Shown here piece by piece: positions 19,171 through 25,499 of a DNA stretch of 64,000 nt (its first letter is position 1; every line of letters starts with the position of its first letter). The DNA lies in assembly GCF_054482525.1 (NCBI RefSeq), contig NZ_CM137006.1; one strand, 5' to 3'. A program made the translations under genes and the position numbers. The notes under the pieces were generated by a model. It did not search any database. It was not told where the DNA came from and was given only the letters and a program-made list of their open reading frames with translations.

Positions 19171-19539
19171 TCACAGCCGTGATCGGCTAAGAACAATATT
19201 ACTTACCTCCCTGTAAGAACACCGGCTCATCAGCCCGCACGCTTTCCTGGCTTGAAGAATGTCTGTCGCAGTCAAATATGGTGCTTGTACCTGAGAGGTA
19301 AATCCATTGCGATCAATACGAACTAACTCATATTTCTCTACCAGAAAGTTAACGGCATTAGCCAGAGTGATACCGGCATCGATATGCTCCTTTATAACGG
19401 TTTCATCGCTAAAAGGTGTGTCGCTTAGCATTAGGCCATAGTGCTGCTCAAGCAGACGAGTAAGTAACATTTGCCAGATTGCAACGGGCGACAGACAGGG
19501 CTTCGCCGCCCGCGAAATTGTAGCAGGTAGATTTTTCAT
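19171..19539 (-). CDS. cbtA: CbtA/YeeV/YkfI-family toxin (type IV TA)
   Basis: Start trimmed to [36 protein letters not shown], closely resembling remembered CbtA/YeeV; ATGA overlap with upstream antitoxin. Confidence 0.8.
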
Positions 19540-19877
19540 GTTTGCTCTCGTGAAATTTGTTTGCGCTGAGGGGGATAAATGGCGATGTATACGTAGCCGC
19601 AACTACCAAGGGTATCGGCTTCGCAGGTGAAACCGTTGTGGTACAGGGTGACACAGTGGGCATGGCGGGGATTCATTTCACCAGTGGTCAGCATCGATTC
19701 CATCTGACTGATAAAATGTGGAAATACGACATCCAACTTCAGGCTTTCGGCATCACTAAACTTACCGGTGATACTTGCCCGGTCAGCCAGATAGTGCAGC
19801 CGGTTGCCCTCCTGCACCAGACGTGCTCCCAGGCACGGCGTGATATCCCGCTGCAGGCCCCATGTGGGGTTGCTCAT
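19536..19877 (-). CDS. cbeA: CbeA/YeeU/YfjZ-family antitoxin
   Basis: 113 aa; [20 protein letters not shown]...[14 protein letters not shown] matches the YeeU family. Confidence 0.8.
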
Positions 19878-19894
19878 TTATAACCTCTTTATTG

Positions 19895-20116
19895 TCAGTT
19901 CAGGGTAATACTCACCAGACAGGTATAAGGTCCGTTGCGATCCTGGCGGCGTTCGACGTATACCGCCAGCACACTGGAAATGTCAGGAACCACCTTAACG
20001 GTGTATTGACAGACACTGCCATGCCACTGGTATCTGCCAGTGCAGAATCGAACAATGCGGGAGGCCGGATGCTGACGGTAAATCGTCATCGCCAGGCGTT
20101 TACTGATAATTTTCAT
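19895..20116 (-). CDS. DUF987 protein (YeeT/YkfH-like)
   Basis: MKIISKRLAMTIYRQHP...YQWHGSVCQYT resembles YeeT; conserved position upstream of cbeA. Confidence 0.65.
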   Translation of the reverse strand: MKIISKRLAMTIYRQHPASRIVRFCTGRYQWHGSVCQYTVKVVPDISSVLAVYVERRQDRNGPYTCLVSITLN

Positions 20117-20124
20117 GTAATACC

Positions 20125-20604
20125 TCAAAGCAGACCATGTTCAGCGAACGACAATATCTGCGTACCACCGACGATAAGGTGGTCGAGCACCCGGATCTCC
20201 ACCAGCATCAGTGCATGTAACAGTCGTTGAGTGATAGCCTTGTCGGCCTGGCTTGGAGTCACTTCTCCGGACGGGTGGTTATGGGCAAATATCACCGCCG
20301 CCGCATTAAAGTACAGCGCGCGTTTCACCACCTCGCGAGGATGAACCTCAGTGTGACTGATGGTGCCGGTAAAGAGCGTTTCGTGGGCAAGCAGCTGGTT
20401 CTGGTTATTGAGGTACAACACGACAAACACTTCGCGCTCAAGGGGGCCCATTTTCAGCCTGAGCCAGTCGCGGGCAGCCTGAGTCGAGGTGAATGCCACA
20501 CCCGGTTCTAGCAAGTGCTGGTCAAGCAGAACCAAGGCTCGCTTAATGGTACGCAGTGCTGGTAACGGCAGTTCAGGTGTAAACATAGTCAGTTGTTTCG
20601 CCAT
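20125..20604 (-). CDS. RadC-like JAB-domain protein (YeeS/YkfG-like)
   Basis: JAMM-like motif HNHPSGEVTPSQADKAIT; 159 aa. Confidence 0.75.
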   Translation of the reverse strand: MAKQLTMFTPELPLPALRTIKRALVLLDQHLLEPGVAFTSTQAARDWLRLKMGPLEREVFVVLYLNNQNQLLAHETLFTGTISHTEVHPREVVKRALYFNAAAVIFAHNHPSGEVTPSQADKAITQRLLHALMLVEIRVLDHLIVGGTQILSFAEHGLL

Positions 20605-20980
20605 AGCAAATATCCTTAATTAAAGGTGGTGAGAATGACACTGGATTCGGCACGACAGGCGTGATGGTCGTATTCGAGTAGGAAGATGGTAATATGATTG
20701 CGGAATGCATGAGGAAACGAAGCCAGCAATGACCCAGTGACTCACACCCAATCACAGTGTTAAAAATAAAAAAATCCCGCAATCCAGCGAGGATTGCATT
20801 GGGATAATATCTATCTGTAATTATTTAGAAAAAATGTTTTTTTTCTGAGGTCTATTATAAATTTTTTTCGTTCAGAAACTTCTCGGATATGATCATCTGC
20901 TGAGTACCAAGAACGGACATTGTACCCAATAGTGAGTTAATCATTGGAACGTTGATCACCCCAATTGAAAATTTTCACAA

Positions 20981-21003
20981 TATCCAATATCCAATATCCA
21001 ATA
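20981..21003. repeat. Short tandem repeat (tatccaa x3)
   Basis: tatccaatatccaatatccaatat read directly from sequence. Confidence 0.6.
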
Positions 21004-21032
21004 TATCGGTGTAGAGGGCTTCTCTCTTAAAC

Positions 21033-22230
21033 TGATCCTACCCGCGTAATGTGGACACGCTCCTAAGCGAGATTCTGGTTTTCAAACTGTTTCGGGCTGA
21101 GGCCGCCATAATCGCTGTGACGCCGCCAGCGATTGTAATCGCACTTAATCCGCCGTCCGCATGATTTCCCGGCTGATAAAGCGTTCTCCGTGGATACACT
21201 CGACTTTTAACGAGTGTAAGAAGCTTTCCGCACAGGCATTATCATAACAGCAACCTTTTGCGCTCATGCTGCCATGCAGATTATGTCGTTTCAGCAGAGC
21301 CTGATAATCCGCTGAGCAGTACTGCCCGCCACGGTCGGTGTGAATTCGCCGCCACAGCGCCATCTGCAGTGCATCACAGGCAAGTTCTGCCGTTATTTGC
21401 GAGGACACCAACTAGCCAATAATAGCACGCGACCACCAGTCTATAACCACGGCAAAGTATAACAAGCTTTCATCGATGCGAAGGTACGTGATGTCACCAG
21501 CCCACTTCTGGTCCGAGCCACTAGATCTGAAGTCCTGCTTCAGCAGATTCTCCGGCACTGGCTGGTCGTGAGCACAGTAGATTAACGGGCTGAACAGACG
21601 TGAGGTTTTTGCCCGCAGGCCCTGACGACGCGAACTGTTGCTATCGTTTTGATGTTGTATTCCGGCGGCTCGTCTGCAAGACGAGCCGCACCATAACGCT
21701 GTTTTGCCTCAACGAATACCTTACAGACAGCTTCATTGAAGACGCACCGGAACTGTTGCCGATGGCTCAGTTGGGGACGACGCAGACACCAGGTATACCA
21801 GCAGCTGTGCGCCACGCACAGCACCCGACACATAGCTTTGATACTGAACTCAACCTGATATTTTTCGATAAAGATATACTTCATTTCAGGCGCTACGCGA
21901 AGTATGTCGCGCCCTTTTGGAGAATAGCCAACTCATTATCCCGCTCAGCCAGTTGACGTTTGAGGCAGGCAATCTCCGCTGCTTGTGCGCTCTCTCTCAG
22001 AGGATATTGTCTGGTGCAGTTGTTTGTAGAGCTGGGAATCGTAAAGGCTGAGTTCACGGGCGGTAGTGGCCACACCGAGACGTTCGGCCAACTTAAGGGC
22101 TTCTTCACGAAATTCAGGCGTGTGTTGTTTGCGTGACTTTTGTTGATTGATGCTGATTTTGTCATGTGAGCTACCTCTGATTGAGAGTTTACTCGCTTAG
22201 TCCCGTGTCCACTATTGGTGGGTAGGATCA
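21033..22230 (-). mobile_element. Degraded IS3-family insertion sequence (frameshifted orfA, interrupted orfB)
   Basis: Terminal inverted repeats tgatcctaccc (21033) and gggtaggatca (22220); ORFs 21893..22231, 21582..21884 and 21145..21411 match InsE C-terminus ([23 protein letters not shown]) and InsF N- and C-terminal parts, but not as continuous frames. Confidence 0.75.
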
Positions 22231-22579
22231 TTATTGATCAAAGATCAAGATGTGCAAAAATTCCCAAGTAAAGCCTTATCTGAACCTTCCGTTTTGTTAG
22301 CACATCTGACATTATTATTCAGTCAAATCCCTTCAGTTGATTGAGTTCAAAGGCGGTAGCTATGCTGATTTGCATTACTGTAAAACTTTTAAAGCAGAGG
22401 TTTATATAGAATTGCTCTGTTGAATAAATTAGTAGGTTCACATGGATTTTGAGTTCACCAAGCATGACAACTTGCGTTCTTCAAGCGATCCTGAGAAGCC
22501 TATTATATTAGTGTACAAGATGCCTCACGTGGCACCACTGAATTTTACATTAGACTCTATCCATTAAAACGATAAAATT

Positions 22580-24313
22580 ATGTACATAGCAAAAATTAAA
22601 TTTACAAATTTCAAATCATTCAAAGAGATGTCTTTTGAGTGCAATGATAAATTCAACATAATTGTTGGTGAAAATAATATTGGTAAAAGCACATTATTTG
22701 AGGGGGTAAGTTTATGGAAATATGCTTATGACAACCTTATTCAAGAAAAAAACAAAAACAAATTCTACAAAGCTTCAACTAACTACTACATTACCTATTC
22801 TACACTCGATCAAATAAGACTTGTTGACGATATTGATATTTTTAACGACCCAAAGAATAGCTCCGCATCAATATGCATTACAATTAAAGATGAACAAAAT
22901 GAATTTGATTTAGAGATTAGATTTGAAAAGCCAGGGATTAAAAATTCATACTTACGGATATTTAATAGCAATGGTTCTGATAATGACACACAGTTTTCAA
23001 ACTTTGAACGATTCTCAAACTATATAAAAGAAAAGGATTGCACTCTAAAAGATGCCATTTACATTTACCAAACAAGACCAATATCAACTATTTTTAGAGA
23101 TGAGCCATTTTACAATAATGCGCAGATAGAGAAAAAAATAAATATTGGAAAGTCACATGATGTCTTAAGGAATAAAATATTAAAAACCGAAAATACTCAA
23201 GCCACAAGGGTTGCACAAAAATTTGAAAATCTTGAGATTCGCCTACAAAAAGTCCTTGGTGAAAACTATATCTTAAAATTTAAGAATAGAAATCGAATCG
23301 ATGATGAGTATGTTAAAATAACTGCAACAAAGGAAAACGGGAAAGAATTGGAAATATCACTTATGGGTAGTGGTTTTTTGCAAGTCTTAGAGATATTTTC
23401 AACAATTGAGTATATGGAAAAGAATTCAACCGGTATTAACCTCATTCTTATCGATGAGCCTGATTCACATATCCACTCAAATTTACAAGCAAATTTAATT
23501 GACGAACTAAAGCAACAAACAGCATGTCAAATTTTTGTCATAACACATAATGACAGACTAACATCAAAAGCTAATGAAGGTGAGCTTTTTTATCTAAATC
23601 AGATAGTTAAGGATCTTGGTTTATTGTCTCACCTTGAAATATCTGATTATTCAAAAGTTAAAGATGGTCTAGCTAATGTACTAACAGCTATAAATGATGG
23701 AGATGAAACACCCATTGTTATAACTGAAGGAAAAACGGACCAGAAAATTTTAACAACTGCTTGGGAAAAGCTAAACCCAGGAACTCCTATGCCTTTTAAA
23801 ATAATTTCATCCGGCATTCAAATTGAAGAGGAAAAAAGAACTGGGTGCGCAGAGGCAGTTAGAAGATCTTTAGAATACATTTCAACATTAACTGATAGAA
23901 CAATTATCGGTTTATTTGATAATGATCGGGAGGGAAATGAGCAGTTCAAAGGATTAAATCGTTCTATTTTTGAACCTCATGACCTGCAAAATAACTCCCG
24001 AAAACATCAGATAAAAAATATCTATGGGCTTATTCTTCCCGTTCCTGTGCATAGAGAACGTTTTGTACAAAACAATTCTTTAACGCAGCGTTACTTCGTA
24101 ATTGAACAATATTTCCAAGATGAAATATTACTACAGCATAACATGAAAGGTGAGTCAATATTAGGTACTGAGGTATTTTTTGTTAATGACTCAAGAAAGA
24201 ATGAGTTTTCAGAGTCAACCAATGACCTTCCGGTAGAATGCTTTGGGGATTTTAGTATTTTATTCGATAAAATTTCCGATTTATTGGCTAACAATAGACC
24301 AGAAAACACTTGA
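22580..24313 (+). CDS. OLD-family ATP-dependent endonuclease (ABC-type ATPase + C-terminal TOPRIM)
   Basis: Walker A GENNIGKST, Walker B/H-loop LILIDEPDSHIH, TOPRIM glutamate IVITEGKTD and DxD motif FDNDREG; 577 aa; strongly AT-rich codon usage. Confidence 0.7.
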   Translation: MYIAKIKFTNFKSFKEMSFECNDKFNIIVGENNIGKSTLFEGVSLWKYAYDNLIQEKNKNKFYKASTNYYITYSTLDQIRLVDDIDIFNDPKNSSASICITIKDEQNEFDLEIRFEKPGIKNSYLRIFNSNGSDNDTQFSNFERFSNYIKEKDCTLKDAIYIYQTRPISTIFRDEPFYNNAQIEKKINIGKSHDVLRNKILKTENTQATRVAQKFENLEIRLQKVLGENYILKFKNRNRIDDEYVKITATKENGKELEISLMGSGFLQVLEIFSTIEYMEKNSTGINLILIDEPDSHIHSNLQANLIDELKQQTACQIFVITHNDRLTSKANEGELFYLNQIVKDLGLLSHLEISDYSKVKDGLANVLTAINDGDETPIVITEGKTDQKILTTAWEKLNPGTPMPFKIISSGIQIEEEKRTGCAEAVRRSLEYISTLTDRTIIGLFDNDREGNEQFKGLNRSIFEPHDLQNNSRKHQIKNIYGLILPVPVHRERFVQNNSLTQRYFVIEQYFQDEILLQHNMKGESILGTEVFFVNDSRKNEFSESTNDLPVECFGDFSILFDKISDLLANNRPENT

Positions 24314-25088
24314 TACTGTACTGCATTTTCCATATCGAGCTAAAACGGACCATTCGCTTTTAAAGTGATTACGGCATACGGGACAGATTTTCCTTAAAGC
24401 AAACGTCTCCTTCACGCCCTGAGACATTCGACATTAAGTAAGAACGGGGGTGCGCCTCGAGTGCCAGCAAATATTTTGCTTCGTCGTAGCGGGTTCTGGT
24501 CATCCAGCAGCTGTAAATGATCCTTATCCATTTATACGCCAGAGCCCAAATGGCTGATTGATGCGATTTTCCTTTTCTTCGCAGCTCTTACTAATAAAGT
24601 CTGGCCCAGAATGATGAGTTAATCGTCTTTGCAGCCCATTCCACGAATGTCTGTCGGACGAGCTCCGCACATTGCCAACATCAGTGTACCCAAGATTTCT
24701 GGCCGCTTTGTTCTGTCACCGGAAAAATACCTGCGTAGTTTTGAATTTCTTCAGCGCAGTTTAACTGGTCACGGTTACTTGAAGAAAGAAACTGACCACT
24801 GCGCTCGTCGTTCGGAAGTGCCAGGGCTATCGGTGGATATTAAGGGAAACCTGACAGCCGGAGGTAATCAGGGTTATTAATGCCGTCAGTGTGGGCCCCG
24901 CTACCAGTGAAACACTAATGTATTGATTAAGTTTCATATTCTTCCTTAATGAAAATAAGCATGTTTTCTTTTGCTAAATCAGTCGTCGTTGGCGATGAAA
25001 CCGGCTCACACATCACGCGATTGTTAAATGAAAAAGCCCCTATTGCGTGAGCAACAGGGGCTATATTTATTTTGTGTCTATAGAGGCA

Positions 25089-25499
25089 TCAGTAACCAGT
25101 TTTAACCTTGTACATCAATAGTGTTTTACTGCCCCGGACAATTTTCACATACAGGGCATTATCTTTCGTGCCTCGCACAAAACCGGCCTGCACATCGCCC
25201 TTACAGTCACCACCGTCGTAAGGAATATTGACACCTGTCTGACGCACCAGATCAATAACCCCGAAGCTTAAGTCCTCACAGGCCGGGCCCGGCAGGTCCT
25301 GAATCAGGGCAAATTTATGGTCGTCGCTGACACCGGTCAGTGAGCACATGGAGGTATTGATGTCGTTTCCCTGGCACCAGTACTCCTGACCGGGATTATC
25401 TTTATCCATCAGACTTGCCGGAAGCTGAGCGGCACCGGCACTGAAGGCGGCAAGTGACAGAATGAGGGCGGGTACAGCAGAGGTCATTATTTTCAGCAT
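25089..25499 (-). CDS. Hypothetical secreted Cys-containing protein
   Basis: Signal peptide MLKIMTSAVPALILSLAAFSAGAA; 136 aa. Confidence 0.5.
   Translation of the reverse strand: MLKIMTSAVPALILSLAAFSAGAAQLPASLMDKDNPGQEYWCQGNDINTSMCSLTGVSDDHKFALIQDLPGPACEDLSFGVIDLVRQTGVNIPYDGGDCKGDVQAGFVRGTKDNALYVKIVRGSKTLLMYKVKTGY

Follow-up and report, generated by a model that had tools for sequence, protein, structure and literature searches.

What kind of element separates a toxin-antitoxin block from an OLD-like nuclease gene in an E. coli genomic island, is it dead, and did it help to bring its neighbours together? The question arose in a stretch of 64,000 nucleotides (contig NZ_CM137006.1 of assembly GCF_054482525.1; hereafter the window, whose coordinates we use throughout). 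A preliminary description, made from the letters alone, had seen an IS3-family element with both ends kept and its transposase frames decayed, probably immobile and perhaps marking a point of cargo exchange. Our analysis leads us to conclude, with a probability of about 90%, that the element is the dead remnant of an IS3-family insertion sequence, now carried passively in an island block. It is an ordinary insertion sequence pseudogene, already annotated in RefSeq, of a kind that is commonplace; it differs in nothing of substance from other pseudogenized IS copies annotated by PGAP. What we add to the annotation is a map of its lesions, its placement in a lineage, an orthologue in another genus and the context of the slot in which it lies.

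The element is precisely delimited. It measures exactly 1198 bp between its outer ends, has a GC content of 52%, and its sequence starts with TGATCCTACCC and finishes with GGGTAGGATCA. Its inverted arms of 39 nt are 79% complementary according to a repeat finder, with 31 of 40 positions matching end to end. A degenerate IS3-type end pattern occurs at two sites in the 64-kb window, against a chance expectation of 0.01, and these two sites are the two ends of the element. Terminal imperfect inverted repeats with 5'-TG ... CA-3' are an IS3-family trait (PMC3219604, PMC4433286), and both termini conform. The coding content was read from minus-strand ORF fragments, which match the Pfam integrase-core domains rve (2.1e-20), rve_2 (1.2e-11) and rve_3. 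An OrfAB repaired in frame fits the family profile of HTH_Tnp_1 plus an rve DDE core, and scores 276 bits against the NCBIfam model NF033516, 'IS3 family transposase' (cutoff 160). Codons for D, D and E and for the downstream K are present in orfB. An AnG-type slippery motif in the orfA/orfB overlap, with orfB in the -1 frame, is a further mark of the family (PMC5009743, PMC5771124); here the order of the two ORFs and the slippery motif are collinear with IS3 and ISEc16, both ORFs being disrupted. In the E. coli genome SCU-102 (NZ_CP051753.1), PGAP labels this copy 'IS3 family transposase; frameshifted; internal stop'. Membership of the IS3 family by descent, as judged from the sequence, is firm.

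Table 1. Features of the IS3-family remnant and its neighbours, in window coordinates.
Feature	Position	Strand	Basis or remark
Whole IS3-family element	21033..22230	-	39-nt inverted repeats; full-length ISEc16/IS3 alignments; PGAP annotation in SCU-102
Left inverted repeat (IRL), terminal 5'-TG	22192..22230	-	36/39 identical to ISEc16 IRL
Right inverted repeat (IRR), terminal CA-3'	21033..21071	-	36/39 identical to ISEc16 IRR
Flank beside IRR: AAC	21030..21032	.	mismatch with the other flank
Flank beside IRL: TTA	22231..22233	.	identical in Klebsiella copies
orfA remnant, open 90-codon frame from ATG at 22165 to TAG at 21895-21893	21893..22165	-	codon-wise comparison, gap map, frames
-1 frameshift heptamer C_CAA_AAG, orfA/orfB overlap, intact	21914..21920	-	motif common to IS3 and ISEc16
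orfB remnant (DDE catalytic domain), four pieces	21063..21884	-	frame and codon comparison; rve/rve_2/rve_3 matches
orfB piece 1	21884-~21638	-	starts at ATG 21884
orfB piece 2	~21636-21415	-	after -1 deletion ~21637, codon 83
orfB piece 3	21411-~21151	-	after TGG>TAG 21414-21412, codon 158; holds in-frame -21 deletion ~21345
orfB piece 4	~21149-21063	-	after -11 deletion ~21150, frame shifted before the C terminus
CbtA toxin, CbeA/YeeU antitoxin, DUF987 and RadC block, downstream of the element, same strand	19171..20604	-	Pfam families; identical locus L008
OLD-like ATP-dependent nuclease gene, GC 31.5%, divergent from the element	22580..24313	+	Pfam, GC, ORF
IS110-family transposase fragment (ISEsa2-like, ~80% nt), far edge of low-GC block	24400..24780	-	

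The canonical length of IS3 is 1258 bp. The element is shorter than both IS3, annotated at 1255 bp in K-12, and ISEc16 (1244 bp) because its deletions sum to 48 bp, taking an ancestor of about 1246 bp to 1198 bp. The preliminary description had likewise placed the repeats about 1198 bp apart, below the length of IS3, and the 39-nt arms do lie exactly at the ends it gave. Lesions were mapped by codon-wise comparison and by an alignment gap map against ISEc16 and IS3. They comprise deletions of 1, 12, 2, 1, 21 and 11 bp and two premature TAG stops, all derived relative to both IS3 and ISEc16. In orfA, the 1-bp deletion in codon 9 (~22140) puts the HTH codons out of frame, as had been suspected, although the HTH peptide AERLGVATTARELSLYDSQLY is readable in another frame (ORF 21945-22091). 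With the 12-bp deletion (~22027), codons 48-50 (A-W-C) are gone, among them the single Trp at the HTH end, which by its motif would correspond to the most conserved residue of IS3-family transposases (PMC3219604). The 2-bp deletion (~21997) returns orfA to its original frame through the leucine-zipper part, and an AAG>TAG change in codon 96 closes the frame four codons early. The intact orfA with in-frame HTH of an autonomous element is thus gone, and the 90-codon hybrid frame, in which 52 residues are out of frame, has no Pfam match. What survives unharmed is the shift site: C_CA(A) plus A_AAG is that of IS3 (PMC5009743).

Damage to orfB is more extensive than had been described: the frame is indeed broken, but into four pieces rather than two, by the second 1-bp deletion, a TGG>TAG change and the 11-bp deletion. 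In addition, the in-frame deletion of 21 bp removes seven residues just before HTDRG, beside the second catalytic Asp, and leaves a D-D spacing of 52 residues in place of 59; the codons for D, D and E themselves are kept. A functional orfB would be continuous, with D(57-60)D(35)E spacing (PMC5771124), whereas this one has two frameshifts, a stop and a spacing of 52. Because the coding of both the HTH and the catalytic domain is destroyed, the element cannot make a transposase. We regard it as dead and presumably immobile; the displaced HTH and the four-piece orfB both support the earlier suggestion that this copy is probably immobile, and nowhere did the alignment to IS3 and ISEc16 recover continuous orfA and orfB frames.

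We asked to which lineage the element belongs. Its DNA is ~80% identical to ISEc16 of E. coli 536, ~80% identical to a copy on an Enterobacter asburiae plasmid and 76% identical to IS3A of K-12. In a sensitive search the closest intact elements were ISEc16-type copies of 1244 bp. The top protein match (P0001), nearer by bit score, was set aside because it is a form of ISEc16 that carries an internal duplication. Among 5.8 billion protein clusters, the best intact matches to the frame-repaired OrfB, from Yersinia aldovae and Dickeya, reach 75-76% amino acid identity, and no intact transposase above ~76% was found. By ISfinder convention, members of one IS species share roughly at least 95% of amino acids or at least 90% of nucleotides, and at these identities the element is of the same species as neither IS3 nor ISEc16. 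Canonical IS3 was also ruled out by megablast, which matched only one E. coli genome, and by the 76% identity to the K-12 copy. The element represents a separate lineage of the IS3 group (IS3 subgroup), with ISEc16 and IS3 as its nearest named relatives.

ISEc16, present in E. coli 536 and many Enterobacterales, shares the end-to-end layout, the 39-nt repeats, orfA, the C_CAA_AAG overlap and an orfB with DDE and the same stop position; it stands at 80% nucleotide and, after repair, ~69-73% amino acid identity. Unlike ISEc16, the element is disabled by six deletions and two stops, so that it encodes neither OrfA nor OrfAB. IS3 sensu stricto (E. coli K-12 insE/insF) has the same family and subgroup architecture; unlike the element, it is intact and multicopy in E. 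coli. Two base pairs before the orfA ATG are found in the element and IS3 and are absent from ISEc16, whereas a 12-bp insertion in IS3 orfB is missing from the element and ISEc16.

The pattern of substitution speaks of relaxed selection. We counted private changes at those codons whose amino acid is shared by three intact relatives; these are crude counts, with no fitted model. In the element, nonsynonymous and synonymous private changes number 39:30 in orfB and 12:11 in orfA, compared with 3:31, 5:17 and 11:35 in orfB of the intact elements. This roughly six-fold excess of replacements, crude as the counts are, indicates that a sizeable part of the divergence of the lineage built up without selection. 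A relative order of events comes from Klebsiella, where the orthologous copy is 1215 bp long and has identical flanks. It shares six of the eight lesions (-1, -12, -2, -1, TGG>TAG and -21); the 11-bp deletion and the orfA TAG are absent from it, and a 6-bp duplication, GATAAT, is its own. Since six lesions are common to both, the element was dead before the two island versions diverged, and each version has kept decaying after the split. The two copies have diverged by 1.0%, a figure compatible with neutrality since the split and with weak constraint alike, because it resembles that of the neighbouring genes.

The element is confined to one place. Among 5426 complete E. coli genomes, a match of at least 85% was found in one, SCU-102, at a single site. 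Every contig that encodes the OLD-like protein, or a variant differing from it by one residue, has this copy in the same island segment (two, L010 and L014, begin inside the element), with one exception. The other recovered E. coli copies, that of SCU-102 included, differ from the window at a single base, 21808, where the window has T and they have C; this private T explains why the exact 100-aa orfB fragment is missing from the protein collection, and it shows that the window derives from a close relative of SCU-102 rather than from SCU-102 itself. In Klebsiella michiganensis and an uncultured Klebsiella the module occupies another chromosomal site (rpoD-mug / tRNA-Ile). The exception is contig L018 (GCA_038398975.1), which, compared with the window up to 22297, has an IS5-family element with an adjacent deletion. 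The deletion took the CbtA/CbeA-DUF987-RadC block and the whole remnant, leaving the OLD-like gene beside yagU/ykgJ. This loss is consistent with the remnant being dispensable.

A search for flanking target-site duplications, which the preliminary description had proposed, found none: the flanks read AAC and TTA in the window and in the Klebsiella copies alike. As a positive control, the intact E. asburiae relative has a 3-bp duplication, with ATG on both sides of the IS, as an autonomous element should. Just left of the IS, at 20978-21004, the 7-bp unit CCAATAT is repeated three times in tandem; its copy number differs in Klebsiella (14 gap columns).

The host island is of the CP4-6 type and is integrated at the tRNA-Thr gene thrW beside proA, which is the CP4-6 position; it extends from the integrase (window ~41.2-42.4 kb) to its CbtA end (~19.2 kb). 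Within it, the element does separate the toxin-antitoxin block from the OLD gene, as first described, with the two neighbours on opposite strands (Table 1). The RadC assignment in that block has a Pfam match of 6.9e-45. OLD-family nucleases combine an ABC ATPase at the N terminus with a Toprim nuclease domain at the C terminus. The OLD-like protein has a clear N-terminal ABC ATPase (AAA_21, 6.4e-17; AAA_15), and its C-terminal 245 aa have no Pfam match even at E<=10. When an AF2 model of it (pLDDT 78) was compared with known folds, only Gabija GajA entries (E ~1e-12) aligned over ~650 columns, near full length, with TM 0.31-0.33; stronger matches, to retron-associated ATPases and PtuA (E down to 3.8e-14), were to the ATPase head only. 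PADLOC matches (NsnB, GajA, AriAB) were weak. The nearest non-identical homologue, at 86% amino acid identity, comes from a metagenome, followed by proteins at ~65% in Aeromonas and marine gammaproteobacteria. The OLD label is plausible but not proven; the ATPase head is the only firm part of the classification, on Pfam, NCBIfam, PDB sequence and fold searches.

PGAP labels the IS110-family fragment beyond the OLD-like gene 'transposase; frameshifted; internal stop; incomplete'. We considered a composite transposon carrying the OLD-like gene, which would need a copy of the same IS on each side of the cargo, and ruled it out: the other flank is this IS110-family fragment, and the window holds no other IS3-type ends. 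Further right, at 24827-24937 on the minus strand, a 36-codon ORF (MKLNQYISVSLVAGPTLTALITLITSGCQV...) with the look of a signal peptide or lipobox is called as a gene on many contigs; ~100 bp around it have conserved counterparts (76%) both in NCTC9064 and in the CP4-57 region of K-12. Other defence-like cargo of the island lies at window ~30-42.6 kb (SCU-102 record 869675-878000), namely a SLATT-domain protein, a nucleoid-associated protein, a GTP pyrophosphokinase (RelA/SpoT-like), DprA and a RecQ-family helicase, all beside the tyrosine integrase.

What occupies the corresponding slot in related islands? In close backbone relatives it holds DUF905 and an antirestriction gene, and homology to the window breaks off at 20529 and returns at 25089. 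In NCTC9064 it holds a YiiX-like hydrolase and a hypothetical gene, with no IS; there, homology stops at 20923 and resumes at 24775. Because its contents differ between related islands, the slot is a genuine variable-cargo position. The E. coli and Klebsiella (L013/L015) islands, which sit at different chromosomal sites (thrW versus rpoD-mug/tRNA-Ile), are ~99% identical over ~19800-25200, a block that contains the end of DUF987, radC, the remnant, the OLD-like gene and the IS110 fragment. Beside this block, identity is 92-96% on the right and 82-95% on the left. From this mosaic divergence we infer that the latest transfer took place by homologous recombination in backbone genes, with the remnant as a passenger: the latest breakpoints appear to lie in those genes (~19800 and ~25200) and not at the ends of the IS.

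These data bear on the suggestion that the element marks a cargo-exchange point, which holds in part: the element lies inside the variable slot, without a target duplication, and GC drops beyond IRL. A specific form of this idea is that the element is a scar left when the OLD-like gene entered the island: an IS-mediated rearrangement would have linked foreign DNA of low GC to the backbone, and the IS end would be the true cargo junction. Recombination between two IS copies, an adjacent deletion or one-ended transposition could each have left such a scar, and all are compatible with an element that is now dead. The flanks, AAC and TTA, differ at all three positions, which is unlikely to result from point mutation, and an intact relative does have a clean 3-bp duplication. 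Directly past IRL, GC drops from the 52% of the IS to 36% and then to ~30%; another IS fragment, unrelated and of the IS110 family, stands at the other low-GC edge, where NCTC9064 homology resumes at 24775; and canonical relatives have DUF905 and the antirestriction gene at this very position. However, the 109 bp on the radC side (20924-21032) are also low in GC (36%) and not in NCTC9064, so the IS may itself be inside the imported segment, and in NCTC9064 the slot is filled by other cargo, without any IS. The latest exchange, moreover, has its breakpoints in backbone genes. Nor was an empty site found. The left-flank 24-mer had no match in 100,044 species-representative genomes, and in no complete E. 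coli genome were the flanks joined. In the metagenomic 86% homologue of the OLD-like protein, the shared DNA begins just 30 bp ahead of the gene. We consider a scar of cargo entry possible, but on balance doubtful.

A dead remnant that is merely carried along remains our preferred explanation, and it has to be set against the proposal that the element is non-autonomous yet still mobile, a MITE-like IS moved in trans by the transposase of related ISEc16 or IS3. Both inverted repeats are complete, with TG/CA termini and 36 of 39 positions each identical to the ISEc16 ends, and ISEc16-type elements are common in E. coli. MITE-like elements mobilized in trans would be expected as dispersed copies with duplications; instead we found one copy, which in E. 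coli and in Klebsiella occupies the same site between identical flanks and lacks a target duplication, and the 5426 complete E. coli genomes hold no second copy of the lineage. IS3-family transposases also prefer strongly to act in cis, that of IS911 being ~200-fold more active in cis than in trans (PMC5009743). Mobility in trans is accordingly very improbable.

Marginally less credible still is a use for the dead element: that the remnant and the IS110 fragment are retained as a portable homology or recombination scaffold through which the OLD-like defence gene is swapped into the slot next to radC in CP4-type islands, or that the ends are used in trans. If true, a 'dead' IS would in effect be a working adaptor for cargo exchange. 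Least probable of all, to the point that we set it aside, is co-option of the remnant, for example as promoter, insulator or source of a small regulatory protein, to act on the radC-TA operon or the OLD-like gene. In its favour, E. coli retains an open frame of 90 codons that starts at the orfA ATG, and the remnant is co-directional with the radC operon. Against it, that frame contains 52 out-of-frame residues and has no Pfam match, a stop, an 11-bp deletion and a 6-bp duplication distinguish the copies of Klebsiella and E. coli, the whole remnant was lost from the E. coli lineage of L018 through the IS5-associated deletion, promoter- and terminator-like sites in the remnant are no commoner than in shuffled sequence, an Rfam search of it returned nothing relevant, and a terminator-like hairpin separates it from radC. 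In these searches we found no sign of co-option. The hairpin, with its T-run, lies at 20798-20778 on the minus strand, in a segment common to NCTC9064, and could insulate the radC-TA operon from read-through.

Overall, the evidence suggests the following history for a passively carried, dead IS3-family element. By analogy with IS911 and IS2, which produce OrfA and, by -1 frameshifting, OrfAB with HTH, leucine zipper and DDE domain, and which move through figure-of-eight and circle intermediates with a strong cis preference (PMC3219604, PMC5009743), the live ancestor would have made OrfA, an HTH DNA-binding protein with a leucine zipper, and an OrfAB transposase by -1 ribosomal slippage at C_CAA_AAG. 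OrfAB would have bound both inverted repeats and driven copy-out/paste-in movement via a circular intermediate. None of these activities can be encoded by the remnant: the HTH is out of frame, the conserved Trp lost, and the catalytic domain broken by two frameshifts and a stop and deprived of seven residues. Inactivation preceded the divergence of the E. coli and Klebsiella versions of the island block and was probably followed by neutral drift. Since then the remnant would have been inherited passively in a block of ~5.4 kb (radC, remnant, OLD-like gene, IS110 fragment), which homologous recombination in the backbone genes on either side may carry from one CP4-6/CP4-57-type island to another.

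Two points are new, if minor. The remnant documents an IS3-group lineage of which a fossil is the only record and no intact member is known. Its lesions also date the assembly of a block of defence cargo: shared and private lesions together act as a relative clock, according to which radC, the remnant, the OLD-like gene and the IS110 fragment already formed a unit before the block spread between islands of Escherichia and Klebsiella. The defence cargo in this slot would be exchanged by recombination in backbone genes, and not by transposition.
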